Source of the DNA: Pseudonocardiaceae bacterium
GTDB lineage: Bacteria > Actinomycetota > Actinomycetes > Mycobacteriales > Pseudonocardiaceae
Assembly: GCA_036279295.1 (NCBI GenBank)
Contig: DASUJK010000129.1
Span: forward strand, 40,165-64,164
Length of the DNA: 24,000 bases
Reading direction: 5' to 3'
Made by a program: the position numbers and the translations under genes
Part shown: in pieces, positions 5,354-23,276 of the stretch
Position numbering within the stretch: the first letter of the stretch is position 1
How the letters are laid out: every line of letters starts with the position of its first letter
The notes under the pieces: model-generated
Told to the model about the DNA's origin: nothing
The model's input: only the letters and a program-made list of their open reading frames with translations
Databases searched by the model: none

Positions 5354-5971
5354 ATGGCCGAACCCACGCCGTCGCCCGAGCAGTCCCTTGAGCAGCGCAC
5401 CGCGGAGCTGCAACAACAGGCCGGCGACGCGATGGCCCACCTGAAGGCCCGGATCGCGGGCGTGCGGCAGGCCCAGCAGCAGGCCATGCAGGCCAACGGC
5501 GAGGCGACATCGCGCGACGGAGTGGTCCGGGTCGTGGTGGACGGCACCGGTGTCGTGACGTCGCTGACGTTGGCACCCAGTGCGTTCGACCGCAGCACGC
5601 CCGACCGCCTGGCACAGACCATCACCGCCACCATCCAGTCCGCCGCCGCACAGGCCAGGGGGCGGACGTCGGCAGCGATGGCCGCGATCCGGGGTGACGA
5701 CAAGGGCCTGCTCAGCTCGGCGGCCAAGGGCGCCGCCGGGCTCGGTGTACCGCCACTGCCGGTGCCCGAGGTGCCCAGGACCGCCGTGGACCCGACCGGC
5801 CAGCAGGACGGCTGGGCCGTCCCGCCGCCAGCACCTGTGGAACCTCCCGCGCCCGTCGTGGAACCGATGCCGGGTCATGTCGCGTCCAACCGCTCGCGTC
5901 GCACGGATGACGTGGATGACAGTGCTGACGACGGGTCCGGCGGGTGGGTGTCGGACGAAAGGCCTTGGTGA
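5354..5971 (+). CDS. YbaB/EbfC-like protein with Pro-rich acidic C-terminal extension (first gene of toxin cassette)
   Basis: The N-terminal ~110 aa show the pattern coiled-coil (QQQA...LKARIAGVRQAQQQ), then GVVRVVVDGTGVVTSLTLAPSAF, then a helix. This is the YbaB-like fold pattern recurrently found beside ESX/WXG loci in actinobacteria. GAGGAA SD lies 6 nt upstream of the ATG. Confidence 0.65.
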   Translation: MAEPTPSPEQSLEQRTAELQQQAGDAMAHLKARIAGVRQAQQQAMQANGEATSRDGVVRVVVDGTGVVTSLTLAPSAFDRSTPDRLAQTITATIQSAAAQARGRTSAAMAAIRGDDKGLLSSAAKGAAGLGVPPLPVPEVPRTAVDPTGQQDGWAVPPPAPVEPPAPVVEPMPGHVASNRSRRTDDVDDSADDGSGGWVSDERPW

Positions 5972-5977
5972 TCGATC

Positions 5978-6742
5978 GTGGGCTTGGTCCTGCCCGGTGC
6001 CCTGACATGGGTGCTGGACATCGTGGGCATCGATTGGCCGAACATCGACGAGGACCAGTTGCGCCAGGCCGCTGACGAGCTTCGCCAGCTGGCCGACGAG
6101 CTGACCGGCAACACCGGCGACGCGAAGTCCGACATCGAGCAGATGTTGCAGAACAACACGGCGGATTCGCTGGAGCTGTTCGAAGCGCTGTGGAACAAGC
6201 TGGCCGGTTCGCATCTGCCGCAGCTCGCCGACGGCATGAAGGTGGTCGGCGCCGGCCTGGACATCGCCGCCGTCGTCGTGGTCGGCATGAAGGCCGCCGC
6301 CATCGCGCAACTGGCGATCCTGGCCGCGGAGATCATCTCCGACCAGGCCGAGGCCGCGTTCACGTTCGGTGCGTCCGAGGCGTTGATCCCGGTCCAGACC
6401 ATGGCCACCCGGGAGATCATGAAGGAAGTGATCGACCAGGCGGTCAAACAGGTTGAGCAGCAGCTGCTCTCCGCCGTCGAGGGACCGATCTTCGAGGCGC
6501 TGACCAGTGCCGGCGAGGAGCTGGCCGGCCAGCTCGTCGGTGACGCGCTGGGTACCAGCAGCGGCATCGACCTGGGCAAGGTGGCGTCGGCCGGTGGTTC
6601 CGGCTTCGAGCAGGGCGTGCAGAGCGTCACGTCCGACCCGCTGGGCGCGGTCGGCCTGACGAGCGGCTCGTCGGATGAATCGTCGGACGAGGGGTTCCAG
6701 TCCAAGACCGGCGTCCTGGTGCCCGACGAGCAGGAAGTCTGA
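5978..6742 (+). CDS. WXG100-like / CpnT-N-terminal-like helper protein with a central hydrophobic segment
   Basis: N-terminus IVGIDWPNIDEDQLRQAADELRQLADEL resembles, from memory, the W-P-x-x-D/E + coiled-coil motif of the N-terminal domain of mycobacterial CpnT-type proteins. Hydrophobic stretch GLDIAAVVVVGMKAAAIAQLAILAAEII. Acidic Ser-rich tail. Starts 6 nt after the previous gene. Confidence 0.55.
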   Translation: MGLVLPGALTWVLDIVGIDWPNIDEDQLRQAADELRQLADELTGNTGDAKSDIEQMLQNNTADSLELFEALWNKLAGSHLPQLADGMKVVGAGLDIAAVVVVGMKAAAIAQLAILAAEIISDQAEAAFTFGASEALIPVQTMATREIMKEVIDQAVKQVEQQLLSAVEGPIFEALTSAGEELAGQLVGDALGTSSGIDLGKVASAGGSGFEQGVQSVTSDPLGAVGLTSGSSDESSDEGFQSKTGVLVPDEQEV

Positions 6743-6746
6743 GGCC

Positions 6747-8060
6747 ATGAGCGGCGGGGGCTTCAACATCAACCCGGACGAACTGCACCACGGTGCCGCG
6801 CAGCTGGGCACGTTCAGCGACAGCATCACCAAGACGCTCGGCAAGCTGAAGACCACCCACCAGAACCTGTCCGCGCACGCCAGCAGTGACAAGTCCGGTG
6901 TCGGGCAGGTGGTCGTCAAGGCGGCCACCAAGTCCGAAGAGGTGATGGGGAACGTCGCCGGCGAGGGCGCCAGGGTGGTGAAGGGCGCCGAGCAGCGACT
7001 GCACGCCGGGGCGACGGCGCACTCGACCAACGAGGAGACGCGCACCAAGGCGTTCCAGGACCTCAAGCCGGGCGAGAGCGGCAAGAAGACCACGCCGTCG
7101 TCCTCCGGTGGCGGTGGCCCGTCGAAGGGCGGCGGGCCCGGTGGTTCCGGGCCGGGCAAGGGTCCTGGCAAAGGTGGCGGCGGTCCCGGCAAGGGGCCGG
7201 GCAAGGGCGGCGGCGGTGGCAAGCCGCCGAAGAAGCCCAAGGCCAGCAACGAACCGCCGGAACCCGCGCTGACCCCGGGCAAGAAGCCGCCGACCGCCAA
7301 CGACACCCCGTCCAAGGTGTTCAACAACCAGCCGAAGCTGCCCAAGCCGGAGAAGTACAAGGACGACCTGCCCAAGGTCGACTCGGCCGGCGCCGTGCCA
7401 CCGAAACCGGCCCGGGGCGCCCAGGTCGAGCAGATCGACGAGAAGCGGGTGAAGCGCGGCGGCGACGGCCTGATCAAGACGGTGGACGGCAAGCCGGTCA
7501 AGCAGTACGTCGGCGAGCTGTCCAGCGGTCGGGCGCAGGCACTCAGCGCCAACGGCCCGGACGAGAAGCCGCTGGAGTCGCGCTGCTCGGCGGTGGCCAT
7601 CGACCTGAAGACCGGCCTGGTCACCACCGGCGTCAACGGCAACGGCGGCGACGTGATCCCGCCGAAGAACCTGCACCCGCTGTTGCAGCAGAACTACCAG
7701 GACCTGCGGGCCTGGCAGCACCCCGTGCAGGGCACCACGCAGACGCTGGACGGCAAGGCGCACTACTCCACACCGGCCGGCCACGCCGAGGTCAAGGCCA
7801 CCAACGAGCTGCTGTGGGCGCGGGAGGCCCAGCTCAAGCCGGGGGAGACCCTGCCGCCGTCCACGCTGGGCGAGCTGCGGTTCGATCCGAGGTGGACGGC
7901 GCAGACCGGCGCCGACGGCGCGATCGGCGGCGCGGCGCCCGCGTGTGCCAACTGCAACTCGCTGCTGGACGGCGTGCCCAGCTACACCGGCCGCTGTACG
8001 TACACTCCGCGCGACGACCGGTATGCGAATCCATCCGTTGCCCCGTATGAGGATCAATGA
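6747..8060 (+). CDS. Polymorphic toxin: helical WXG100-like N-terminal domain + G/P/K-rich linker + C-terminal YwqJ-like nucleic-acid deaminase domain
   Basis: ATG at 6747, 4 nt after the upstream stop. The track's 6675 start overlaps the previous gene and reads as Arg/Ser junk. N-terminus FNINPDELHHGAAQLGTFSDSI... is an ~100-aa helical hairpin. The deaminase zinc/catalytic motif HAE is at 7782-7790 and PACANC (PxCxxC) at 7938-7955. Confidence 0.75.
   Translation: MSGGGFNINPDELHHGAAQLGTFSDSITKTLGKLKTTHQNLSAHASSDKSGVGQVVVKAATKSEEVMGNVAGEGARVVKGAEQRLHAGATAHSTNEETRTKAFQDLKPGESGKKTTPSSSGGGGPSKGGGPGGSGPGKGPGKGGGGPGKGPGKGGGGGKPPKKPKASNEPPEPALTPGKKPPTANDTPSKVFNNQPKLPKPEKYKDDLPKVDSAGAVPPKPARGAQVEQIDEKRVKRGGDGLIKTVDGKPVKQYVGELSSGRAQALSANGPDEKPLESRCSAVAIDLKTGLVTTGVNGNGGDVIPPKNLHPLLQQNYQDLRAWQHPVQGTTQTLDGKAHYSTPAGHAEVKATNELLWAREAQLKPGETLPPSTLGELRFDPRWTAQTGADGAIGGAAPACANCNSLLDGVPSYTGRCTYTPRDDRYANPSVAPYEDQ
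7149..7214 (+). repeat. Tandem 33-nt (11-aa GPGKGPGKGGG) duplication inside the toxin linker
   Basis: Copy 1 at 7149-7181 and copy 2 at 7182-7214 encode identical peptides. They differ at 6 third-codon (synonymous) positions. Both are embedded in a wider Gly/Pro/Lys low-complexity region, 7107-7241. Confidence 0.8.
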
Positions 8061-8434
8061 ACGAGTTGCGCGTCGACATCGAGGACACCACCCTGAGCGA
8101 GGGACAGGAGGTCCTGTACCAGGGCGTGCCGCTGACCGGTGAAGTGATCCGCACCACCGCAGGCGGCGTCGTGGTCACGGCCAAGCAGTACCGCGACGGC
8201 CTGGAGGAGGGCACGCAGCGGGAGTGGTACGGCGACGGCACCCGCCAGTCCGAGTACACGGTCGTGGACACGAACGTGACCGGCGAGACGCTGGACTGGC
8301 ACCGCAACGGCCAACTGGCCCGTCGGCAGGAGTTCGACGAGTACGGTGAGCTGCGCAAACGCGAGGTGTGGGACGAGGACGGCGTGCCGCAGCCGGACGA
8401 GGCCGTGGACGACCGGGCTGACGACGCCGAGTAA
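8057..8434 (+). CDS. Putative immunity protein, MORN-variant/YwqK-like repeats with acidic tail
   Basis: The ATG overlaps the toxin stop (ATGA at 8057-8060). Repeated G-x-x-x-x-W/Y-x-x-x-G motifs ([51 protein letters not shown]) match the MORN-variant repeats of YwqK-family antitoxins. 125 aa. Confidence 0.7.
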
Positions 8435-8565: not shown

Positions 8566-10938
8566 GTGATCCGATCACTGGGCGCCGCCGTCGGGAGACG
8601 GGTGGCGCCAGGGGTGTCGGGAGCGTGGGTGAGCCAGGACGTCGAATCTGCGGCCGCTGCCGGAGCTGAGCAGTTGGCCGCCGCGCGGCCGCCGTCGGCC
8701 ACCCGCAGGGTGCGCGCCCGGTTGGCGAGGCGCATCACGGCCCAGCGGCCGTCCTCGGTCAAGCAGGTGCTCGAACCGCTCGCCGCCGTCCACCGTGACC
8801 TGCACCCCAACGCCGATCTCGGCCTGTTGCAGCGTGCCTACGACGTGGCCGAGGAGAAGCACCGCGAGCAGCGGCGCAAGTCGGGCGATCCGTACATCAC
8901 ACACCCGCTCGCCGTCGCGACCATCCTGGCCGAACTGGGCATGGACACCACGACCCTGGTCGCCGCCCTGCTGCATGACACCGTCGAGGACACCGACTAC
9001 TCACTGGAGCGCCTGCGGGCCGACTTCGGCGAGGTCGTCGAGCACCTGGTGGACGGCGTCACCAAGCTGGACAAGGTCAAACTCGGCTCGGCGGCCGAGG
9101 CCGAGACCATCCGCAAGATGGTCATCGCGATGGCCCGTGACCCGCGCGTACTGGTCATCAAGCTGGCCGACCGGCTGCACAACATGCGCACGATGCGGTT
9201 CCTGCCGCCGGAGAAGCAGGCCCGCAAGGCCCGCGAGACACTGGAAGTACTGGCCCCGCTGGCACACCGGCTCGGCATGGCGACGGTGAAGTGGGAACTG
9301 GAGGATCTCGCGTTCGCGATCCTGCAACCCAAGAAGTACGACGAGATCGTCCGGCTGGTGGCCAACCGGGCGCCGTCGCGGGACACCTACCTGCGCACGG
9401 TCAAGGAGGAACTGGCCGGACACCTCGCCGAGGCCAGGCTGGAGGCCGAGGTCCAGGGCAGGCCCAAGCACTACTACTCGATCCACCAGAAGATGATCGT
9501 CCGCGGCCGGGACTTCGACGACATCCACGACCTCGTCGGCGTGCGGATCATGGTGGACGACGTCCGCGACTGCTACGCCGCAATGGGCGTCGTGCACGCG
9601 ATCTGGCAGCCGATGCCCGGCCGGTTCAAGGACTACATCGCGCAGCCCCGGTTCGGCGTCTACAAGTCCTTGCACACCACCGTGATCGGGCCGGACGGCA
9701 AGCCGCTCGAAGTGCAGATCCGGACCAGGGACATGCACCACACGGCCGAGTACGGCATCGCGGCGCACTGGCGGTACAAGGAAACCAAGGGTTCGCACAA
9801 CGGCAAGTCCGTCGAGATCGACGAGATGGCCTGGATGCGGCAACTCCTGGACTGGCAGCGGGAAGCGGCCGACCCGGGCGAGTTCCTCGAATCGCTGCGC
9901 TACGACCTGGCCACCCGCGAGATCTTCGTGTTCACGCCCAAGGGCGACGTGGAGACGCTGCCGGCCGGCTCGACACCGGTGGACTTCGCGTACTCGGTGC
10001 ACACCGAGATCGGCCACAAGTGCATCGGCGCCCGGGTCAACGGCAGGCTCGTCGCGCTGGAACGCAAGCTGGAGAACGGTGAAGTAGTCGAGATCTTCAC
10101 CTCGAAGGCCGACGGCGCCGGGCCGAGCCGCGACTGGCTGTCGTTCGTCGCGTCACCGCGTGCCAAGACGAAGATCAAGCAGTGGTTCGCGAAGGAGCGC
10201 CGCGAGGAGGCCATCGAGGCCGGCAAGGACACCATCAGCAAGGAGGTCCGCAGGGTCGGACTGCCCCTGCAACGGCTGGTGTCCGCCGATTCGATGTCCG
10301 CGCTGTCCCGGGAACTGCGCTACCCGGACGTGACAGCGCTGTACGCGGCCATCGGCGAAGGCCAACTGTCCGGCCGGCACGTCGTGCAGCGTCTCGTCGC
10401 CCTGCTCGGTGGCGTCGAGCACGCCGAGGACGAGCTGGCCGAGCGCTCCACACCGTCCACAGTGACCAGACGCCGCGGTTCCGGCGACGCCGGCGTGGTG
10501 GTGGTCGGCGCGTCGGACGTGTGGGTCAAACTGGCGCGCTGCTGCACCCCGGTACCCGGCGACGAGATCCTCGGCTTCGTCACCCGTGGCGGCGGGGTCA
10601 GCGTGCACCGCAAGGACTGCACCAACGCCGGCGACCTGTACGACTCGCCGGAACGGCTGGTCGAGGTGTCCTGGGCCCCGTCGGCGTCGTCGGTGTTCCT
10701 GGTCGCCATCCAGGTCGAGGCGCTGGACCGGCACCGCCTGCTGTCCGACGTGACCAAGGTGCTTGCCGATGAGAAGGTCAACATCCTGTCCGCGTCGGTG
10801 GCCACGTCCCGGGACCGGGTCGCGGTCAGCCGCTTCTCCTTCGAAATGGGCGACCCGACGCACCTGGGCCACGTGCTCAAGGCCGTGCGCAGCGTGGAAG
10901 GCGTCTACGACGTGTACCGGATGACGTCAGCCAACTAG
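8566..10938 (+). CDS. relA: Bifunctional (p)ppGpp synthetase/hydrolase RelA/SpoT (Rel)
   Basis: Near-colinear with mycobacterial Rel as I recall it. HD domain ([13 protein letters not shown]...LLHDTVEDT), synthetase domain ([12 protein letters not shown]...DLVGVRIM), TGS ([10 protein letters not shown]), CCTPVPGD zinc-finger region and C-terminal ACT. The exact start is uncertain (GTG 8566 or a later GTG). Confidence 0.95.
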
Positions 10939-11274
10939 CTTCAGGATTTCGTCCAGCGCGGCCTGACCATCGGGTGCTCGTTTCGGCAGCCGGTCAACGA
11001 GATCGGCCAGGTGGACCCCGTCGACCTCGCTGACGATCGAGGCGATCTCCGCGAACGTAGTCCGTGGCCTGGCGCCGAGCTGTACGTAGGAGCTGATGTC
11101 GCCGCCCATCTGGTACGTGACAACAGCGGCGGCGAGAAAATGTGCCCATATCTGCCCTATGTCGCCAGCCGCTCCCCGCAAATGGTTGGCCAGGTTGTGA
11201 TGGCTGAGGGCTACCTGCTGCGGATCGAACGCCACGTACGCCAGCCGCAGCGCGTCTGCCTCCAGGAAAAAGCT
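10927..11274 (-). pseudogene. Out-of-frame C-terminal continuation of the CHAT-STAND-TPR protein (open frame downstream of the A5/T5 frameshift site)
   Basis: The minus-strand frame opens after a TAG at 11275-11277. It reads SFFLEADALRLAYVAFDPQQVALSHHNLANHLRG..., a TPR-like, protein-like sequence. The annotated frame of the large ORF instead ends in Arg/Trp-rich SWRQTRCGWRTWRSIRSR*. Confidence 0.6.
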
Positions 11275-14200
11275 CTATCCTGATGCGACAGCGTGCGCTC
11301 AATGTTGGCCTGTGCGGACAAGGTCTTGCTGAGTAGGTCGATTTTGTTGTTCTGTTCGAAAACGGATCGACACCATCGCAGCAGCTCAATGGCCTCGTCC
11401 ATTCGATCCAGGCGGCACAGTGCTTCGCAGTCGTTGAAGAGAGTTGTCGCCTGTTCGACCGCGGAAGCGCCGCGGGCGCGTTGGGACGCGTTGTGTTCCG
11501 CGTTGATCTCCAGGGCCAGCTCCCATAGGCCCAGTTCTCCAGCGGAAATGGAACCGAGATTGAGGATGGGCTCGCGACTAATCCACGCGGAACCAGTTTC
11601 GTCTACGCCTTGGATATCCAGCAGTGTCGCCATCGCGATGCGGTGCTGTTCGACCGAATCCAGCACTTCTTGATGACGGCCTTGGTGCCAGAGGATCTGA
11701 AGACGTTGAGCATCGTCCCCGATCCGGGTCCACGGCCCGAGGCCAGCCCGGGCGCTGTATTCAATCTTGTCGTCCGCGAGTTGGAGGGCTTCGTCGAGGC
11801 GGCCGGCCCGACGAAGCAGGTTGATCAGGCTGGGTGCGATGATCGAAGCGGCGCGAAAATCACCCTGCGCCACAGCGAGATCCAGTAACTCACGGAATCG
11901 AGTTGTCGCATGGTCCGGGTGCAGTACAGCTAGCGCCTGAGCATGGACGCGTCCGGCCATCAGTGCGTGCTCGGTGCTGATGGTGGCATCCATGGCACTT
12001 GCAAGTAGTGGCAGAAGTGCCGATGCGGTGATTGCCGAGGCGTCATATTGGACTAGCGCGTCGGCAGCGACACTGAATTCCAACCAGCGGTGTTGGTGGA
12101 ACAGATACGGAGCCGATGATCGGGCCGAATGAAGGATCATAGGTCCAAGTTGGTCGGTCTGTTCCCGTTGCAGCGCGGCGTGAAGTACCGCCAGCCATAG
12201 GTCGCCGAGCACGGTGTCCACCGCATTGGCGAACTCGGAACGCGCGCGGTCGCGTACTGTTTCGGCGATGCCTGGATGGACGCGATAGGTACTGGCCGCT
12301 ACCAAGGCCGCGTCGAGCAATGGTGGCATCGACTTGGCCGGATCTGGTGGATCGCCCGGACGTCCTAACCGCTCCCACACCGCAGTCCAGGCGCCCTCGG
12401 CGATCCTGGCGTTGCGGTCGCTCTCCTCCAGGCAGCACAGGAACTGGAAGAACACGGCGGCGTCCGATGGCAAGCCGGCCACCGTGGCTAGGGTCCAGGT
12501 CCGCAGGACAGCCAGGTAGTTCGCATCGGTCGCCTCGGACTCGCCGTCCAGGAACGGTGCCAGCCGGGTGCCTCCGCGCTGCCACGTCTCGTCCGCCTCG
12601 GCCAACCGGGTCGCGAGCCGCTCGGGATCAGCGGCATGGCCGTCGGCCAGCTCGATCAGCTTGGGGTGGCCTTGGACCACGGTGATCGTGCGCCTGGCCA
12701 GTTCAGGGTCGCTGTCGATGAGCGCCCTGAGGTGCGGCAACTCCCGAGCGAGCAACACAGCTTCCCGCAGCGACAGAGCGTGCACCGGCTCGACCAGCAC
12801 CGAATCGGGCAGTCCAACCGGCCGACGACGCGAGGTCAGCACCAGCCGGGACAGGCCATGATGCGCCGTCATCGCGTCGATCAGCAGCGCCCACCGCTCG
12901 TCCCGCCACTCGCCGCCGTCCGTGAGCAGCGACTCGACGTTGTCCAGGACGACCAGTACTCGCTCCTGCTCCAACACCTCGGTGAACGACGGCAGCCACG
13001 CCCGCCACGCGTCGATGTCGCCGACGAGGTGCGCGAGCTTGAGCCCCGGCAGTTGCCGCTCCAACGCGAACGCGAAGTCCGACAGGGCCGTCGTGATGTC
13101 GTGGCCTTCAGGCGGTGCCGCATGCCAGGCCATCGCCGGGAACGACTCCTGGTGCGTGTACGCCAGTTCCAGCGCACACGCGGTCTTGCCGGCTCCCGCC
13201 ATGCCGTGCAACAGGATGCCGCTGCGGCCGCTGTGCGGGGCCAACGCTGTGGTCGCCCGCGTCATCGGCTCGACCCGGCCGACGAATCGCTCCGGCTGCG
13301 CGGGAAAGTCGGCCAGCTTCTGCCGTTCCGCGTCGAACACCAGCGGCGCACCCGGCGGTGGCACCAGTTTCAGGTCGCCCGCACGCGGCCCGAACAACGT
13401 TGGCGTCGCCACGGACATCGCAGGTGCGGCAGCCGTCGGCGGCTGCACGGCGGCCTGGGGCAACGACAACGCCAAGGCACGCGCGACCGACTGCCCTTTG
13501 CCCAGTACCAAGCCGTAGAACGATTCCGCCAACGCGATTGCGAAGTCGTCGACCACCGGATAGCGCATCGCCAGGACCGCGCAGTCCAATGTGCCGGCCA
13601 CCTCGGTCGCGATGGCAGGCAGTGCTCCGCTGTCAGCGTCGGTGTCGACATCGCGCACGGCCGGTGCCAGCCCGAGCAGGTGCAGCTGCTCACCGGCCGC
13701 CACCGCCGCCGACTCGCACGCGGACAACGTGACCAGCTTGATCTGGTCGGCAGCCAGGTCGAGCAGATCAACGAGATCGGTGCTGCTGATCAGGTCCAGC
13801 CGGCCAGTGTCGTCCTCCAGCACCAGCCCTGCCGGCAGGCCGTGGCCGGACAGGTGCACCACGTCCCAGCCGGCGTCCTCCAACAACGCTTCACGCAGCC
13901 GTTCCCTGGTCGCGCCGTACTGGAGCACGCGCAGCTCGATGGGCTTGTTGTTGACAGCGGCGATCTCGTGGACGAGCCGGGCCAGCGCGAACCGCTCCTT
14001 GCGCAGGTTCAGCGCTCCCGCGTCCTCGGGCAGGCTGAACACGGCCAGCATCCGCAGCCGTTCGCCGACATCGGACTTGGCGAGCGGGCGGTGTGGCTGC
14101 TGGTCGATGATGAAGCCGACGCGGTGCCCGGCCAGCGTGCGCCCGTCCACCCGGGCCAACTCCCACGGCAGACAAGCCAGCACACCGGCTTCGGCGGGCA

Positions 14201-14510
14201 CCTCGATCCGCACCGGCCGCCGATGGCGCGCCAACACCGCCGCCAGGCCGCCGAAGACGCGCTCGGTGATCCACTCGCCGAGCTGGTCGACCAGCTCGGC
14301 CTCGTGGCGCAGCCGCCGGTCGGGTGCCGCGTTGTGCCGCAGATAACCGTGCAGGTCATGGAACGCGGTGTACTGCCATTCCTGGCCGCGCAGGTCGACG
14401 ACGTGGTCACCCAGGAACGTGCCGGCGTCGGTCAGCCGCCATCGCCACTTCGTCGGACCGGCGTGGTCGAGCACCTCAAGGCGCAGTTCCACGTCACTGT
14501 GTCGCGACAT
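11211..14510 (-). CDS. NLR-like STAND protein: N-terminal CHAT (caspase-like) protease + NB-ARC/AAA P-loop NTPase + C-terminal helical/TPR sensor (apparently frameshifted near 3' end)
   Basis: CHAT dyad context VVHLSGHG (13839-13856) and LVTLSACESA (Cys codon 13716-13718). Walker A GMAGAGKT (13182-13205). Walker B VLVVLDNVE (12933-12959). Long alpha-helical repeat C-terminus. Confidence 0.8.
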   Translation of the reverse strand: MSRHSDVELRLEVLDHAGPTKWRWRLTDAGTFLGDHVVDLRGQEWQYTAFHDLHGYLRHNAAPDRRLRHEAELVDQLGEWITERVFGGLAAVLARHRRPVRIEVPAEAGVLACLPWELARVDGRTLAGHRVGFIIDQQPHRPLAKSDVGERLRMLAVFSLPEDAGALNLRKERFALARLVHEIAAVNNKPIELRVLQYGATRERLREALLEDAGWDVVHLSGHGLPAGLVLEDDTGRLDLISSTDLVDLLDLAADQIKLVTLSACESAAVAAGEQLHLLGLAPAVRDVDTDADSGALPAIATEVAGTLDCAVLAMRYPVVDDFAIALAESFYGLVLGKGQSVARALALSLPQAAVQPPTAAAPAMSVATPTLFGPRAGDLKLVPPPGAPLVFDAERQKLADFPAQPERFVGRVEPMTRATTALAPHSGRSGILLHGMAGAGKTACALELAYTHQESFPAMAWHAAPPEGHDITTALSDFAFALERQLPGLKLAHLVGDIDAWRAWLPSFTEVLEQERVLVVLDNVESLLTDGGEWRDERWALLIDAMTAHHGLSRLVLTSRRRPVGLPDSVLVEPVHALSLREAVLLARELPHLRALIDSDPELARRTITVVQGHPKLIELADGHAADPERLATRLAEADETWQRGGTRLAPFLDGESEATDANYLAVLRTWTLATVAGLPSDAAVFFQFLCCLEESDRNARIAEGAWTAVWERLGRPGDPPDPAKSMPPLLDAALVAASTYRVHPGIAETVRDRARSEFANAVDTVLGDLWLAVLHAALQREQTDQLGPMILHSARSSAPYLFHQHRWLEFSVAADALVQYDASAITASALLPLLASAMDATISTEHALMAGRVHAQALAVLHPDHATTRFRELLDLAVAQGDFRAASIIAPSLINLLRRAGRLDEALQLADDKIEYSARAGLGPWTRIGDDAQRLQILWHQGRHQEVLDSVEQHRIAMATLLDIQGVDETGSAWISREPILNLGSISAGELGLWELALEINAEHNASQRARGASAVEQATTLFNDCEALCRLDRMDEAIELLRWCRSVFEQNNKIDLLSKTLSAQANIERTLSHQDRAFSWRQTRCGWRTWRSIRSR

Positions 14511-14511
14511 G

Positions 14512-15804
14512 TCAGCACCGTATTACCGGACCGGTCACCCCGCGATAGGTCACCCCACCGTCCGACGAGAGCTGGACGATCGGGATCGCCCTGTCGAGCG
14601 GGTTGCCCGCCTTGTCGAAGCACAGGTAGCCGCTCGCGCCGTGCACCGGCCGCTCGGGACTGATCGCGGTCAGCACCTCGTCGTGCGACACGATGGCCTG
14701 ATCGTCGTCGAGTGCGGTGGCGGGCTCGGCCGGGAACATGTGGCTGAACCCGTGTGGTGCCTTGGTGAACCACGCCGTGGTGGCCGGGTCGGCCAGTGCC
14801 GGACCGCGCCACATGCCGGGGCTGGCCAGCGCCGTGAAGTACACGGTCATGTTCGCCGACGCCGACCACAGGTCGGGTTGGCCGGCGATCTGTGCCGCGT
14901 CACTGCTGGTCAACACCGTCAACGGCTGGGTCCTGGCACACGATCGGTGGCCCAGTTCCGTGAGAGTGCGGCGCAGATCCGGGCCGGTGCCGGCGAAGTA
15001 GAGGACGTTCACGTGCGCCCGGCACACGCCGTCGCCACCGCCCGCGGCACTGGCCGTCAACACCGTTGCCGCCGCCGGCACGCCGGAGTCGTACTCCGAG
15101 CCCGGGCCGACGATCTGGTAGCGGTTCCGCACTGCGGGCGCATACGCGTCGCCCAACGCGATCGCGTGCGCGTCCGCCGGATTCTCGTCCTGCATCAGCC
15201 ACATCCGTGGCCGAGCGGGCAACCGATCGGGACGGGTGTCCAGGAAGCGGATCGCGGCCGACACCTCGTCCGGATACGTCGGAGTCACTCGGACCAGCCC
15301 ATGGATCCCGGCCAGGTCACCGGTGCCGACCATCGCGATGTGCCGGCCTGCCAAGGCATGGGCCAGGTCGGCATCCCCACTGCCCAGGCCGATCACCGCC
15401 ATCGGGTGCTGTCCGTGGAGCGCGGTCACTGCCGGCTGCCACGCCCGGTCGTCGGCCAGCACGAGGCGGACCAGCGGTGAGCCGGTGGTGCTGTCGGTCG
15501 GATGATTGGCCTCGTACTGCGCCAGATATGCGCCCTCAACGGCATGCCTGGTGTCCGCCGAGCCATTCGGCACCACCAGCACCACGATGGTCACAAAGTG
15601 CTTTCCGGTGCCGGCCACCCATTTGTTCTGTTGGTGGATCAGATTCTCCACCTGCCGTAGGTTCGCGTTGAACACATGTCCGCCGTCGGTCACGTACACC
15701 GGGGCAGGCGGAATCGGTCGTAGTGCGTAGGCAACGCCCCCAGCGGCTGCCAACACGATGACAAAAAGTGGAACGATCAGTCTTCGGCGTCGCCACCAGG
15801 GCAT
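14512..15804 (-). CDS. Membrane-anchored/secreted type-I periplasmic-binding-protein-like (LivK/Peripla_BP_6-like) protein, no cognate ABC permease nearby
   Basis: ATG at 15804 preceded by GGGGGAGG with a 7-nt spacing. N-terminus MPWWRRRRLIVPLFVIVLAAAGGVAYAL (signal/anchor). Body pattern AVEGAYLAQYEAN...LVRLVLADD...AVIGLGSGD...VRVTPTYPDE typical of type-I PBPs. The TGA stop is 1 nt from the ATG of the CHAT-STAND gene. Confidence 0.65.
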   Translation of the reverse strand: MPWWRRRRLIVPLFVIVLAAAGGVAYALRPIPPAPVYVTDGGHVFNANLRQVENLIHQQNKWVAGTGKHFVTIVVLVVPNGSADTRHAVEGAYLAQYEANHPTDSTTGSPLVRLVLADDRAWQPAVTALHGQHPMAVIGLGSGDADLAHALAGRHIAMVGTGDLAGIHGLVRVTPTYPDEVSAAIRFLDTRPDRLPARPRMWLMQDENPADAHAIALGDAYAPAVRNRYQIVGPGSEYDSGVPAAATVLTASAAGGGDGVCRAHVNVLYFAGTGPDLRRTLTELGHRSCARTQPLTVLTSSDAAQIAGQPDLWSASANMTVYFTALASPGMWRGPALADPATTAWFTKAPHGFSHMFPAEPATALDDDQAIVSHDEVLTAISPERPVHGASGYLCFDKAGNPLDRAIPIVQLSSDGGVTYRGVTGPVIRC

Positions 15805-15840
15805 ACGTCGGCCTCCCCCTCGCGCACCGCAACCAGTCCC

Positions 15841-15867
15841 ACGCATTTCGACCCCCGCGAAATGCGT
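15841..15867. promoter_or_regulatory. Perfect 10-bp inverted repeat ACGCATTTCG-N7-CGAAATGCGT upstream of the PBP-like/CHAT-STAND operon
   Basis: Read directly from the sequence. Lies 37-63 nt upstream of the 15804 start and 116 nt downstream of the cyclophilin stop. It could be an operator or the terminator of the upstream gene. Confidence 0.35.
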
Positions 15868-15982
15868 TCATGGACATTTCCTGGACACCGCGACCGGGCA
15901 TTTACCCGGGCGCGGCCGGACTGATTGTGGTGTGCCGAGGCGGCCGAATGCAGCCGCTGTTCGGGTAACGGAGCGGGTGAAC

Positions 15983-16777
15983 TCAGCCCGCGGCGACGGT
16001 GGCCGACGTGATGGTCACCTTGGTCGCCGGTGGGCCGTCCGTCGGGTCGCTGCCCTGTGCCACGCCCGCCTTCGAGATCTTGTCCAGCACCGTGAGACCG
16101 GCCGGCGACACCTGACCGAACACCGCGTAGTTGGGCGGCAGATCGGAGTCCGCGTACACGAGGAAGAACTGGCTGCCGCCGCTGTGCGGCTGACCGGTGT
16201 TGGCCATCGCCAGGGTGCCCCGCGCGTACAGCGAGGCGCCCGGGGCACCCGGCGCCGGCGGCAGGTCCGTCGGGTTCTCGTCCGGGATGGTGTAGCCGGG
16301 ACCGCCCATGCCGGTGCCCGTCGGGTCACCGCACTGCAGGACGCTCAGTGACGGCGACGTGGTCAGCCGGTGGCACGGCGTCTGGTTGAAGTACCCCTTG
16401 GTCGCCAGGAACGCGAAGCTGGCCACCGTGCACGGAGCCTTGGACCTCGGCATCGTCATCGGGATGTCGCCCTGCGACGTGTGCAGCGTGACGCTCACCG
16501 TGCCGGCCCGGGGTGCCGAATTGGGCGGCAGGCCCTCGTTGTGCCCGGACGGTGCCGGCTGGTCCGGCGTCGCCGTGAAGTCGCACGTGCTGGTCCCGGT
16601 GGCGGGCGGCGCGCTGGCCGCTGCCGTCGTCGTGGCCGGTGCGACCGCTGGTGCGCTGGACGCACCACCGGCCGCGGTCGGGGTACCGGAGCCGGACTGT
16701 GCGCAACCGGCCACCAGCCCGAGCAGGGCGGTGACCGCGGCGCAGGTGATCATGGCGCGCCGATGACTGGCGGTCAT
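15983..16777 (-). CDS. Cyclophilin-type peptidyl-prolyl cis-trans isomerase, lipoprotein form
   Basis: Lipobox LLGLVAGC. Cyclophilin core CHRLTTSPSLSVLQCGDPTGTGMGGPGY...GTLAMANTGQPHSGGSQFFLVY...YAVFGQV. Confidence 0.9.
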   Translation of the reverse strand: MTASHRRAMITCAAVTALLGLVAGCAQSGSGTPTAAGGASSAPAVAPATTTAAASAPPATGTSTCDFTATPDQPAPSGHNEGLPPNSAPRAGTVSVTLHTSQGDIPMTMPRSKAPCTVASFAFLATKGYFNQTPCHRLTTSPSLSVLQCGDPTGTGMGGPGYTIPDENPTDLPPAPGAPGASLYARGTLAMANTGQPHSGGSQFFLVYADSDLPPNYAVFGQVSPAGLTVLDKISKAGVAQGSDPTDGPPATKVTITSATVAAG

Positions 16778-17751: not shown

Positions 17752-17900
17752 CCGACCGTGTGACAGCGCAGTCTAGGGCGAGGTGATGTGAGGACCGTGT
17801 GGTGGGCCGGTCCCGGTAGGCTGTCAACCGCCTGGCAACGGCCTTGACCGTTGGCCACACTGTGTGGACTGGCAAGTTTCTGCTAACCGGAGGTCGTGTC

Positions 17901-18614
17901 GTGCTGGTCGTCGGGTTCCCTACCGGGGCGCTACAGGCGAACTGCTACCTGTTGGCCGCCGATGCCGGGGAGCCCTGTGTCATCGTCGATCCCGGCCAGG
18001 ACGCGGTCGAGCCGATCATGGACTCGATCCGCCAGCACCGGCTGTCGCCGGTCGCGGTCCTGCTCACCCACGGGCACTTCGACCACACGTTCGCCGTGAC
18101 CCCGGTGTGCGACGGCCAGGACATTCCGGCTTGGATCCACCCGGACGACAGGGACATGCTGTCCGACCCGATGCGCGGCCTGAGCAGCGACGCCACCGAG
18201 TTCTTCGGCGGCCGGATCGAGATGCGGGAGCCCGCGCAGGTGCGCGAACTCGCCGACGGCGTGGTGTTGGACCTGGCCGGTCTGAAACTGGTCGTCGACC
18301 ACACTCCGGGCCATACGGGCGGGTCGGTGACGTTCCGGACCGGCCCCGAGGGACCCGACGGGCCCAGCACGCTGCTGCTGGCCGGGGACACCCTGTTCGC
18401 TGGTTCGATCGGACGTTCCGACCTGCCCGGCGGCGATCCGCGTCGGCTGCTGGAGTCCTTGCGGGACAAGGTACTCACGCTGGCCGACGAGACGGTCGTA
18501 CTGCCGGGCCACGGCCCGACGACCACCATTGGCCGGGAGCGCGCGAGCAATCCGTTCCTCGTGGGTATCAACGGCGACGACGCCACCCCGGCCGCACCGC
18601 ACCGAGGACTGTGA
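17901..18614 (+). CDS. MBL-fold metallo-hydrolase (glyoxalase II-like)
   Basis: GTG at 17901 with GGAGG 7 nt upstream. [19 protein letters not shown]-terminus and HxHxDH motif (LLTHGHFDH). The track's TTG 17844 start adds an unsupported leader. Confidence 0.85.
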
Positions 18615-21218: not shown

Positions 21219-23276
21219 GTGCGATGGGACGGACAGCGGGTTCAGGGGGACGGGCAGGCGCAGGGCGCCTTGCCCGGGATCAGTGGGCTGGTGCGCAGCG
21301 TGCGTACGCCCGAGTTCAACGGCCTCGTGTTCCACGAGGTGATGGCCCGATCGGTGCTGAACAAGGTGCCGGGCGCGTCGTCCATGCCGTTCGGCTGGAC
21401 GGTGAACCCGTACCGCGGCTGTTCACACGGTTGTACGTATTGCCTGGCCGGGGACACCCCGGTGCTGATGGCCGACGGCCGCACCAAGCCGATCGCCGAT
21501 CTCGTCGTCGGCGACCGGATCTACGGCACGCGGCTGACCGGCCGATATCGCCGCTACGAGGCGACGACGGTGCTGGCGCACTGGGCCACGGACAAGCCCG
21601 CCTATCGGATCAAACTGGTCGACGGCACCGAGTTGGTGACCAGTGCCGACCACCGGTTCCTGACCGAGCGGGGCTGGAAACACGTCACCGGCACCACGAC
21701 CGGTGCGGCCCGGCGCCCCCACCTGACCACCGGCAACAAGCTGATGGGCACCGGTTCGTTCGGTGCGCAACCGGTGGTGGACGCGGACTATCGGCGCGGC
21801 TACCTGTGTGGGCTGGTGCCGGGTGGCGGTGGTGCCGGCTACCGCGACCGGGTGGCCAGGTTCCGGCTGGCCGCCGCACCGGACGGCGTGGCCGATCGGG
21901 CGGCACGGTTCCTCGCCGAATTCGGTGTGGACGCCGAACACGCCGGTGTGGTGCCCGGGTTGCTGGCGTGGCCGAGCGAGCCGAACGACCACTGGCACAA
22001 GGGTTTCCTGGCCGGAGTGTTCGACGCGCGGGGCGGCCGGTCCAGTCGGGTGCTGCGGATTCGCAATGCTGATCCCGAGGTGGTGCGGGCAGTGCTCGTC
22101 GGGTTCACCAGGTTCGGTTTCGCGCACACCGTGGAGGAGGCGGCCAAGGGCGTCGGGCCGCAGGTGGTCCGGCTCAACGGTGGACTGACCGAACACCTGC
22201 GGTTCTTCCATACGGTGGACCCGGCCGACACGAGCAAACGCACCATCGACGGGCTGGCCATCAAGTCGGGCGCGGCGCTGGGTGTGGTGTCGATCGAGGC
22301 ACTGAACAAGACGATGCCGATGTACGACATCACCACCGGCACAGGTGACTTCGTCGCCAATGGTGTGGTGTCGCACAACTGTTTCGCCAGAAATTCGCAT
22401 ACGTACCTGGATCTGGACTCGGGGCACGACTTCGACACCCAGGTCGTGGTGAAGGTCAACGCGGTCGAGGTGCTGACGGCCCAGTTACGGGCCAAGAAGT
22501 GGCAGCGAGAGCACGTCGCGATGGGTACGAACACCGATCCGTACCAACGGGCCGAGGGCCGGTACGAGTTGATGCCGGGCATCATCGGCGCGCTGGCCCG
22601 GTCCGGCACGCCGATGTCGATCCTGACCAAGGGCACGGTGCTGTCCAGGGACATCCAGTTGCTGGCCGCCGCGGCCAAGGACGTGCCGGTCGGGCTGGGC
22701 GTGTCGATCGCGTTGGTCGACCGGGACATCCAGCGTGATCTCGAACCAGGCACGCCCAGCCCGCAGGCCAGGTTGGAACTGGTCCGGCGGGTGCGCGAGG
22801 CAGGGCTGCCGTGTGGCGTGTTCGTGGCACCGGTGTTGCCGATGCTGACCGACTCGGCGGACCGGTTGGACCGGCTGTTCGCCGCGATCGCCGATGCTGG
22901 CGCGACGGGCGTGACGGTGTTGCCGCTGCACCTGAGGCCGGGCGCGCGGGAGTGGTTCGCCGCGTGGTTACGCAGGGAGCATCCGGAATTGGTGGAGTCG
23001 TACCGGCAGATCTACGGGAAGGGGAGTTACGCGGATCGTGGTTACCGGAAGCTGTTGGCAGCCCGGGTCGGTCCACTGTTACGCAGGCACGGCCTGAGCA
23101 CGGGCACCGACCGGTCCACGACGGACACGGCCACCGATGGCGCCGATGGCACTGGGCCGGTGGGCGGCGGCGCGGGGGAGTCGGACCCGGACCGCGCGGT
23201 GTGGCCTGCGGGCAGCCTGCCAGCCGGAGCACCACGGTCAGCCACGGTGGACCAGGGCCAACTCAGCCTTCTGTGA
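21219..23276 (+). CDS. SplB-like (COG1533, Rv2578c-family) radical SAM protein, intein-containing precursor
   Basis: Exteins read RSVRTPEFNGLVFHEV...PYRGCSHGCTY|CFARNSHTYLDLD...GTNTDPYQRAEGRYELMPGII...SILTKG, typical of the Rv2578c-type radical SAM family. 685-aa precursor, about 372 aa after splicing. Confidence 0.9.
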   Translation: MRWDGQRVQGDGQAQGALPGISGLVRSVRTPEFNGLVFHEVMARSVLNKVPGASSMPFGWTVNPYRGCSHGCTYCLAGDTPVLMADGRTKPIADLVVGDRIYGTRLTGRYRRYEATTVLAHWATDKPAYRIKLVDGTELVTSADHRFLTERGWKHVTGTTTGAARRPHLTTGNKLMGTGSFGAQPVVDADYRRGYLCGLVPGGGGAGYRDRVARFRLAAAPDGVADRAARFLAEFGVDAEHAGVVPGLLAWPSEPNDHWHKGFLAGVFDARGGRSSRVLRIRNADPEVVRAVLVGFTRFGFAHTVEEAAKGVGPQVVRLNGGLTEHLRFFHTVDPADTSKRTIDGLAIKSGAALGVVSIEALNKTMPMYDITTGTGDFVANGVVSHNCFARNSHTYLDLDSGHDFDTQVVVKVNAVEVLTAQLRAKKWQREHVAMGTNTDPYQRAEGRYELMPGIIGALARSGTPMSILTKGTVLSRDIQLLAAAAKDVPVGLGVSIALVDRDIQRDLEPGTPSPQARLELVRRVREAGLPCGVFVAPVLPMLTDSADRLDRLFAAIADAGATGVTVLPLHLRPGAREWFAAWLRREHPELVESYRQIYGKGSYADRGYRKLLAARVGPLLRRHGLSTGTDRSTTDTATDGADGTGPVGGGAGESDPDRAVWPAGSLPAGAPRSATVDQGQLSLL
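21441..22379 (+). mobile_element. Class-1 intein (313 aa) with degenerate LAGLIDADG homing-endonuclease insert
   Basis: Block A CLAGDTPVLMADG. Block B ELVTSADHRFLT. Blocks F/G MYDITTGTGDFVANGVVSHN followed by +1 Cys. LAGLIDADG-like motifs GYLCGLVPGGGG (21798-21833) and KGFLAGVFDARGG (21999-22037). Confidence 0.88.

Follow-up and report, generated by a model that had tools for sequence, protein, structure and literature searches.

A frameshifted gene predicted to encode a CHAT protease, a STAND NTPase and a TPR-like solenoid at a variable site between relA and ppiB in a Pseudonocardiaceae genome

The window analyzed here is a 24,000-nucleotide (nt) stretch of DNA from a metagenome-assembled genome (MAG) of a soil Pseudonocardiaceae bacterium (GenBank assembly GCA_036279295.1, contig DASUJK010000129.1, positions 40,165 to 64,164). 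On its minus strand, between a relA/spoT-family gene and two cyclophilin genes, lies a gene for a protein with an N-terminal CHAT domain, a central STAND nucleoside triphosphatase (NTPase) and a C-terminal helical solenoid. By analogy with known receptors of similar layout we favor, with some reservation, the view that the gene encodes a single-polypeptide NLR-like receptor-protease, in which a CHAT protease, a STAND switch and a TPR-like solenoid sensor would be joined and nucleoside triphosphate (NTP)-dependent activation would lead to target cleavage. The parts of the gene are as follows (aa, amino acids; ORF, open reading frame; AF2, AlphaFold2).

10927..14510, minus strand: whole CHAT-STAND-TPR gene, frameshifted; repaired product of 1194 aa, relatives aligning over 99% of it
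11211..14510, minus strand: ORF as deposited, 1099 aa; its final 18 residues are R/W-rich, out-of-frame junk
11235->10927, minus strand: second ORF, 102 aa, in another frame, holding the conserved C-terminus
13470..14276, minus strand: predicted CHAT caspase-like protease domain (Pfam PF12770), aa 79-347 (fold about aa 1-380)
13839-13856, minus strand: HLSGHG motif, aa 219-224
13842..13844, minus strand: predicted catalytic His223 (in GHG), kept in at least 90% of 30 relatives
13710-13727, minus strand: LSACES motif, aa 262-267
13716..13718, minus strand: predicted catalytic Cys265 (in LSAC), kept in at least 90% of 30 relatives
12246..13289, minus strand: predicted STAND NTPase module, aa 408-755 (P-loop, helical ARC-like, winged helix), from fold and invariant residues
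13182..13205, minus strand: Walker A GMAGAGKT, aa 436-443
12933..12959, minus strand: Walker B VLVVLDNVE, aa 518-526
12400..12420 (about 12410), minus strand: sharp mosaic breakpoint at about aa 700, in the winged-helix region
11272..12239, minus strand: TPR-like alpha-solenoid, a putative sensor, aa 758-1081 in the AF2 model, running on past the frameshift
11267..11271, minus strand: run of five T (T5), the frameshift site, one base short compared with relatives
10927..11266, minus strand: displaced C-terminal 113 residues, with the last helical repeats and the conserved tail GVHLADL...DGQAALDE

The N-terminal domain is predicted to be a caspase-like cysteine protease of the CHAT type, whose catalytic dyad would be His223/Cys265. 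It matched PF12770 at 46.2 bits (cutoff 24; E 5.5e-12) over aa 79-347, and the same model was found in 26 of 30 relatives. In the full AF2 model, which was built on a 30-sequence alignment and has a mean predicted local distance difference test score (pLDDT) of 86.4, the core strands are consecutive, H223 lies in the loop after strand 217-221, and C265 lies in the loop after strand 259-263. An AF2 model of aa 1-400 (pLDDT 80) was searched with Foldseek and matched SAVED-CHAT (8tl0, 5.8e-8), separase (5e-5) and caspase-6, -7, -11 and -3. A PDB sequence-profile search with the N-terminal 400 aa gave no caspase or CHAT match. The CHAT domain proposed in the first-pass annotation of this DNA is thus above the Pfam cutoff and agrees with the matched folds, and the four motifs it cited (HLSGHG, LSACES, GMAGAGKT and VLVVLDNVE) are all present on the minus strand and conserved in relatives.

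The motifs and the predicted fold likewise identify the central domain as a STAND P-loop NTPase. The AF2 layout comprises an alpha/beta N-terminal domain (aa 1-380), an alpha/beta P-loop region (408-580), a helical and winged-helix region (580-755) and a continuous solenoid of helical hairpins (758-1135), followed by a small helical tail. In the 30 relatives, K442 of Walker A, D523 of Walker B, the sensor-1 residue R561 (in LTSRRR), the GxP-like G614-H615-P616 and H745 at the MHD-like position of the winged helix are invariant. A Foldseek search of the PDB with the full model returned PH0952 (6mfv, E 5.4e-12) and Avs3 (8dgc, 1.2e-7), as well as RPP1, CED-4, NRC3, Dark and many TPR proteins (entries include 7dfv, 4m9s, 9ria and 3j9k). 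These matches bear out the STAND P-loop that had been annotated; we also examined whether the N-terminus might lie outside CHAT or the centre outside STAND, and both fell within these families. The more specific NB-ARC label is borderline. AAA_16, AAA_22 and NB-ARC Pfam matches at aa 408-617 were all below cutoff in the window protein (NB-ARC, PF00931: 19.9 bits, cutoff 23.5), and among the 30 relatives AAA_22 was found in 25, AAA_16 in 24 and NB-ARC in 11 (E<=1e-3; best 3.4e-6), with single relatives matching NACHT, nSTAND5 or nSTAND6 instead of NB-ARC. The earlier term "NB-ARC ATPase" is not secured by these scores.

The C-terminal half is modeled as a TPR-like helical solenoid, in line with the long helical-repeat C-terminus described earlier. 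The AF2 model consists of helical hairpins throughout and matched the TPRs of LGN and OGT in Foldseek, and a PDB profile search matched the solenoid to designer PPR and kinesin light chain TPR proteins. In the window protein no Pfam TPR was detected at E<=0.01, only PPR at 0.007-0.009; TPR_12 was matched in 11 of 30 relatives (best 3.5e-10). Mean identity to the query across relatives was 0.6-0.78 in the CHAT core and NTPase and lowest, 0.34-0.5, in the solenoid. Many relatives (P0003, P0008 and P0055 among them) are 1300-1500 aa long and extend 100-300 aa past the end of the window protein; the extension holds one or two copies of a helical module of about 70 aa with the pattern W..L...LR.I..G.RD...L...LD..D..I.

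The interval 10927-14510 is 3584 nt long, which is no multiple of 3, and holds two ORFs. The single gene annotated over it is in fact split into parts of 1099 and 102 aa by a one-base frameshift that had gone unnoticed. Adding one T at the T5 run (11267-11271) gives the 1194-aa protein; tblastn segments for residues 1-1081 and 1080-1194 join at 11268-11274, and the repaired junction aligns without a gap to the nearest relative (R-A-F-F-L-E-A-D in the window gene, R-A-V-I-L-E-T-D in the relative). All inspected relatives have a single frame across the position of the T5 run. The 1099-aa ORF is identical to P0001, the NCBI entry 'MAG TPA: CHAT domain-containing protein [Pseudonocardiaceae bacterium]', and because this version was deposited, the lesion is present in the public assembly. 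It is either a true mutation or a homopolymer or strain-mixture artifact of metagenome assembly. Barring assembly error, the window copy is probably inactive or impaired, because the frameshift removes the conserved last 113 residues, among them the invariant H1104 and G1165. Programmed -1 frameshifting at the T5 run was rejected as the main reading, since the zero-frame codons GCT-TTT-TCC make up no X-XXY-YYZ heptamer and the inspected relatives stay in one frame. A low-level P-site slip on TTT is possible and would restore the same 1194-aa protein.

The family is large, patchily distributed, rich in paralogs and mostly found as a solo gene. A word-indexed protein search returned more than 1373 relatives, and an exhaustive search of 1.84 billion cluster representatives (family clusters being defined at 50% identity) returned 3003 at E<=1e-3, of which 723 reached E<=1e-30; among the 150 best relatives of the exhaustive search, most were colinear over residues 9-1081. 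When 185,579 species genomes were scanned, 206 stretches were confirmed, and we retained 76 loci. Forty-nine of these are labeled Actinomycetota (Saccharothrix, Streptomyces, Micromonospora, Actinoplanes, Dactylosporangium, Geodermatophilus, Frankia and others), and the other 27 are in MAGs labeled Chloroflexota, Acidobacteriota, Alpha- or Deltaproteobacteria and a few archaea, some on megabase contigs. ORF clustering revealed no conserved partner gene at the 76 loci; the top cluster occurred at 16 of 76 and consisted mostly of C-terminal extension or alternative-frame ORFs. At some family loci another NB-ARC-type gene lies within 6 kb. Two to three copies are present in several genomes, with three in Dactylosporangium aurantiacum, and Geodermatophilus carries tandem CHAT-STAND copies. 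The window's own MAG has a second paralog on another contig (P0035, VFX16_26270, 1311 aa, 53% identity), which is apparently intact. Tandem or closely spaced paralogs were also noted at L039/L063 (Geodermatophilus obscurus), L045 (G. siccatus) and L042, where a same-strand ORF of 1272-1551 aa lies immediately 5' of the matched gene.

In the window the gene order is ruvB, yajC, secD, secF, a phosphoribosyltransferase gene (apt position), YbaB-like, WXG100-like and YwqJ-deaminase-like genes, a small ORF, relA, the CHAT-STAND gene, a 444-aa gene, two cyclophilin genes, an MBL-fold gene and hisS. This backbone would correspond to the hisS-Rv2581c-ppiB-relA-apt order of Mycobacterium tuberculosis. 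The nearest neighbors are as follows.

8566..10938, plus strand: relA/spoT-family gene, convergent with the CHAT-STAND gene
14512..15846, minus strand: gene for a membrane-anchored, divergent type-1 periplasmic-binding-protein (LIVBP-like) product of 444 aa, co-oriented with and upstream of the CHAT-STAND gene
16777->15983 and 17751->16816, both minus strand: two tandem cyclophilin peptidyl-prolyl isomerase (PPIase) genes (ppiB-like)
17844-18614: MBL-fold gene, a conserved neighbor of hisS whether or not the CHAT gene is there

Only one of the 76 family loci, in another Pseudonocardiaceae MAG (L001), is syntenic with the window. A short metagenome contig (L080) holds a PPIase gene, a 450-aa gene and a CHAT N-terminus at 84% identity. 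Two related contigs (L077 and L079) show the same hisS-MBL-ppi-ppi...relA frame without the CHAT gene. In its place their interval contains a gene for 626-635 aa together with one or two genes of the 444-aa family and, in some cases, a glyoxalase gene. Because related contigs have the interval without it, the CHAT-STAND gene is accessory in the ppiB-relA interval, as the first-pass annotation had proposed on the view that relA and ppiB are neighbors and that the gene was inserted between them. The gene does lie between the two, and the interval frame is shared; however, the co-oriented 444-aa gene, missed earlier, lies there too, and in close relatives relA and ppiB are not simply adjacent, since other variable genes always stand between them. 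Looking for marks of a mobile element, we found no tRNA and no Rfam family, and the flanking direct or inverted repeats were only short matches at chance level; no integrase domain was found among the window ORFs scanned with Pfam, which were most of the large ones. The 3' ends of relA and the CHAT-STAND gene overlap by 12 nt (10927-10938), so there is no room for separate terminators. A promoter and terminator scan of 10700-16100 gave nothing above shuffled expectation.

Comparison with the syntenic copy in L001 showed that the gene is far more divergent than its flanks. The flanking genes are 89-97% identical at the protein level with a synonymous divergence (dS) of 0.25-0.30 (relA has a nonsynonymous divergence, dN, of 0.02), whereas the CHAT-STAND gene is 69% identical. 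The divergence between the window and L001 is also uneven along the gene:

aa 1-400: dS 0.54, dN 0.10
aa 400-700: dS 0.77, no dN value
aa 700-1194: dS 1.3-1.6, dN 0.39

At the breakpoint, identity to the nearest relative falls from about 0.75 to 0.05-0.5 within 20 residues, and the G+C content at third codon positions (GC3) falls from about 0.9 to about 0.65. The sensor half beyond it has low GC3 and is 51% identical to the L001 copy. The drop in GC3 begins about 380 codons upstream of the frameshift, and a milder drop is seen in the intact L001 copy. No closer donor of the sensor half (aa 701-1194) was found among 5.8 billion proteins; because the best match was 48% identical, no donor can be named. 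From these patterns we read the gene as a probable recombinant whose sensor half would derive from a lineage within this family that is unsampled and has atypical codon usage, and we read the window and L001 alleles as probably older than the split of the two genomes.

Fusions of this kind have been described computationally before. Dyrka et al. (2020, bioRxiv 10.1101/2020.01.06.895854) reported that bacterial NLR-like proteins frequently begin with a CHAT domain, and Kaur et al. (2020, eLife PMC7159879) described fusions of caspase domains with STAND NTPases and repeats as prevalent in actinobacteria. A 2026 survey of STAND proteins reported bacterial Apaf-1 orthologues with N-terminal caspase-like proteases (PMC13581612). 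The closest precedent with a tested function is KrAvs12 of Ktedonobacter racemifer, a fusion of a caspase-like domain with an Avs STAND protein. A phage tail connector protein triggers it, and killing results when it cleaves EACC1, which is encoded upstream and becomes a pore former on cleavage (PMC12642450).

The window protein shares with Avs proteins, including KrAvs12, an N-terminal effector, a STAND NTPase and a TPR-like sensor in one polypeptide and a predicted caspase-superfamily Cys protease as effector, in keeping with the Foldseek match to Avs3; it differs from them in lacking a PADLOC Avs match, an upstream EACC1 gene and a defence-island context. With Apaf-1, CED-4, Dark and plant NLRs it has in common the P-loop/ARC/winged-helix switch, the sensor-1 Arg, the GxP and the His at the MHD position, its fold matches CED-4, Dark, RPP1 and NRC3, and the output logic would be the same, namely caspase activation by induced proximity. 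Unlike apoptosomes and NLRs, its caspase-like domain is fused rather than CARD-recruited and its sensor is TPR-like rather than WD40 or LRR; its NB-ARC Pfam score is below cutoff, and its Walker B has the form hhhhDN..E rather than hhhhDD. PH0952, a MalT-like STAND-TPR protein, is the best structural match of the NTPase and TPR parts (target-normalized template modeling score 0.60 over 753 aligned columns), but it has no protease effector and its sequence identity is 13%. SAVED-CHAT, whose CHAT protease is activated on filament assembly, is the closest solved fold of the N-terminal domain. Whereas SAVED-CHAT and TPR-CHAT/Csx29 (Craspase) are regulated by a SAVED domain that binds cyclic oligoadenylates or by a CRISPR effector complex, the window protein would be regulated by a STAND NTPase, and unlike CRISPR-associated CHAT proteases it has no CRISPR genes near its gene. 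The defining feature of Kaur's 'System 4' (PMC7159879) is a 5' gene for EACC1, which is absent at the window and related loci.

By analogy with Avs proteins, apoptosomes and KrAvs12, the receptor-protease would work as follows. The solenoid would bind a ligand, and autoinhibition would be released. NTP-dependent oligomerization would bring the CHAT domains together, so that the dyad is activated by proximity. The activated CHAT would then cleave cellular targets encoded elsewhere, leading to cell arrest or death, and the outcome may be abortive infection or another non-self response. The mode of evolution argues for such a role: multiple paralogs, tandem copies, presence and absence at one locus and divergence beyond that of the flanks resemble what would be expected of a conflict gene.

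Several observations weigh against this interpretation. The window copy carries a frameshift. In PADLOC-DB v2.0.0 no Avs1-5 or bNACHT model was matched, only, and weakly, PDLC02016 SAVED_CHAT (E 1.1e-6) on the protease; an NCBIfam search gave no match. Among 121 GC3-supported proteins encoded within 5 kb at 21 isolate loci, no defence enrichment was found: PADLOC matched only generic oxidoreductase (three times), TPR (twice) and PDC-S27 (twice), and the Pfam content was metabolic and regulatory (short-chain dehydrogenases, luciferase-like oxidoreductases, MFS transporters, penicillin-binding proteins and regulators). A search for substrate-type genes (EACC1, Pepco or gasdermin) next to the CHAT-STAND gene found none in the window or among the relatives' neighbors; the small upstream ORFs at 10 related loci included no EACC1, and the ORFs immediately upstream of relatives were heterogeneous. 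No hydrolase-type gene recurs beside relatives, the window's MBL-fold gene being a housekeeping neighbor of hisS. Across phyla the sensor keeps 35-50% identity, as would also be expected if its ligand were endogenous and conserved. Finally, the elevated dS in the N-terminal part, about twofold over the flanks, could partly reflect weaker codon bias; the signal in the sensor half is too large and too abrupt for codon bias to explain it.

The first-pass annotation had assigned the protein to the antiphage Avs/bNACHT type, and the PADLOC result and the neighborhoods do not bear this out. Since there is neither an Avs/bNACHT match nor a defence-enriched neighborhood, the case for an antiphage role is made from architecture only; such a function is plausible by analogy.

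The frameshift and the low GC3 of the 3' half, as expected under AT-biased mutation, would also suit a decaying pseudogene without present function in the source organism, given that the lost 113 residues are conserved and include invariant positions. We regard this as possible though rather unlikely. Only one lesion is present in 3.6 kb, both frame segments are otherwise free of stops, there are no further indels relative to relatives, and the catalytic motifs are all intact. GC3 falls abruptly at about residue 700, well before the frameshift, and the intact L001 copy shows its milder drop. The lesion itself may be a homopolymer miscall or a strain mixture in the metagenome assembly.

A STAND protein that senses an endogenous metabolite or a developmental cue, like MalT, GutR, AfsR or PH0952, could instead use its CHAT domain to process a specific host regulator, for example when filamentous bacteria differentiate hyphae or undergo developmental cell death. 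PH0952, the best structural match, is MalT-like, defence-island context is absent, and the whole architecture including the sensor is about 40% identical across phyla, all of which would suit such non-immune signaling. We nevertheless consider it unlikely: the gene is present or absent among close relatives at one locus, genomes hold multiple and tandem paralogs, the allele is far more divergent than the flanks with an apparently recombinant sensor half, and the window genome tolerates a frameshift. Such presence and absence, paralogs, divergence and tolerated damage are atypical for a dedicated housekeeping regulator.

The receptor-protease might also act together with the LIVBP-like protein, encoded upstream by the gene whose stop codon lies 1 nt ahead of the ATG of the CHAT gene. 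This 444-aa protein has an Arg-rich N-terminal segment, one transmembrane helix and then the LIVBP-like domain. The protein itself has no Pfam match; the family profile matched the branched-chain amino-acid binding protein 3td9 (1.1e-6), LIVBP and glutamate-receptor amino-terminal domains, and distant members matched ANF_receptor and Peripla_BP_6. Among the 76 CHAT-STAND loci the gene occurs at one. In the other examined contexts of the LIVBP-like family with upstream DNA and at least 30% identity (L077, L079, L081-L093, L111-L113, L115 and L117-L119), it always lies directly 3' of a same-strand P-loop NTPase gene of about 620-720 aa, whose product has the Walker A GPRGSGKT and weak AAA_16 and nSTAND5/6 matches. 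In the window lineage this NTPase gene is absent and the CHAT-STAND gene stands 1 nt downstream of the LIVBP-like gene. We found no literature description of the NTPase/LIVBP-like two-gene module.

This arrangement could reflect partner exchange or the coincidence of a single insertion event, and a functional link between the two proteins is possible. In a two-gene module, the LIVBP-like protein would be an extracytoplasmic sensor or a membrane target, and the CHAT-STAND protein would replace the usual NTPase of about 650 aa. The 1-nt spacing on the same strand, the same pair and order in L001 and L080, the NTPase gene directly before the LIVBP-like gene in all qualifying contexts and its absence where the CHAT-STAND gene is present point in this direction. 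On the other side, 75 of 76 CHAT-STAND loci do not have the LIVBP-like gene, so the family can do without it; the LIVBP-like protein has a predicted cytoplasmic tail of only about 25 residues, so that not much is available for contact with a protein of the cytosol; the window, L001 and L080 form one closely related lineage and therefore count as a single evolutionary event; and the two NTPases are not detectably homologous by BLASTP. We judge such a module improbable. If it exists, it would couple a caspase-like death protease to the detection of a small molecule outside the cytoplasm or of an event near the membrane. A second unusual feature, put forward alongside it, is that the locus would behave like a polymorphic immune locus within core synteny, its alleles being older than the flanks and its sensor half swapped. 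Sensor swapping by recombination, as at eukaryotic NLR loci, is suggested by the mosaic structure of the sensor half and by how deeply the alleles diverge at this site in the core genome.

Fusions of a caspase-like protease with STAND are bacterial counterparts of apoptosomes and inflammasomes, of which few have been tested. The trigger and cleavage targets of the receptor-protease proposed here would tell whether caspase-STAND fusions can kill through direct cleavage of host proteins, and whether their role lies in immunity or in development; the family is informative in this respect because it is large and has neither a dedicated substrate gene nor a defence-island signature. The window gene is damaged and thus a poor experimental start, and intact orthologues from isolates, such as P0008 of Saccharothrix sp. 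ALI-22-I or P0055 of Streptomyces, are better suited. At the locus itself, the putatively recombinant sensor half at a variable spot of the core genome and the NTPase/LIVBP-like gene pair merit follow-up.

Some other features of the window were also noted. Between the window and L001, the cyclophilin that borders the variable interval has diverged faster than the other one (82.5% versus 91% protein identity, dN 0.11 versus 0.05). A cassette on the plus strand between the apt-position gene and relA (5354-8434) encodes the YbaB-like protein, the WXG100-like protein (PF25547), the YwqJ-like deaminase (PF14431, 461 aa) and the small ORF of 125 aa with a weak MORN_2 match; it is also present on a related contig and resembles a polymorphic toxin secreted by a type VII system, possibly accompanied by an immunity gene. 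A radical SAM protein of 685 aa (21219-23276, plus strand) has three concordant but sub-threshold matches, to Intein_splicing, LAGLIDADG_3 and Hom_end_hint, at aa 75-310, and an intein may be inserted ahead of its radical SAM core.

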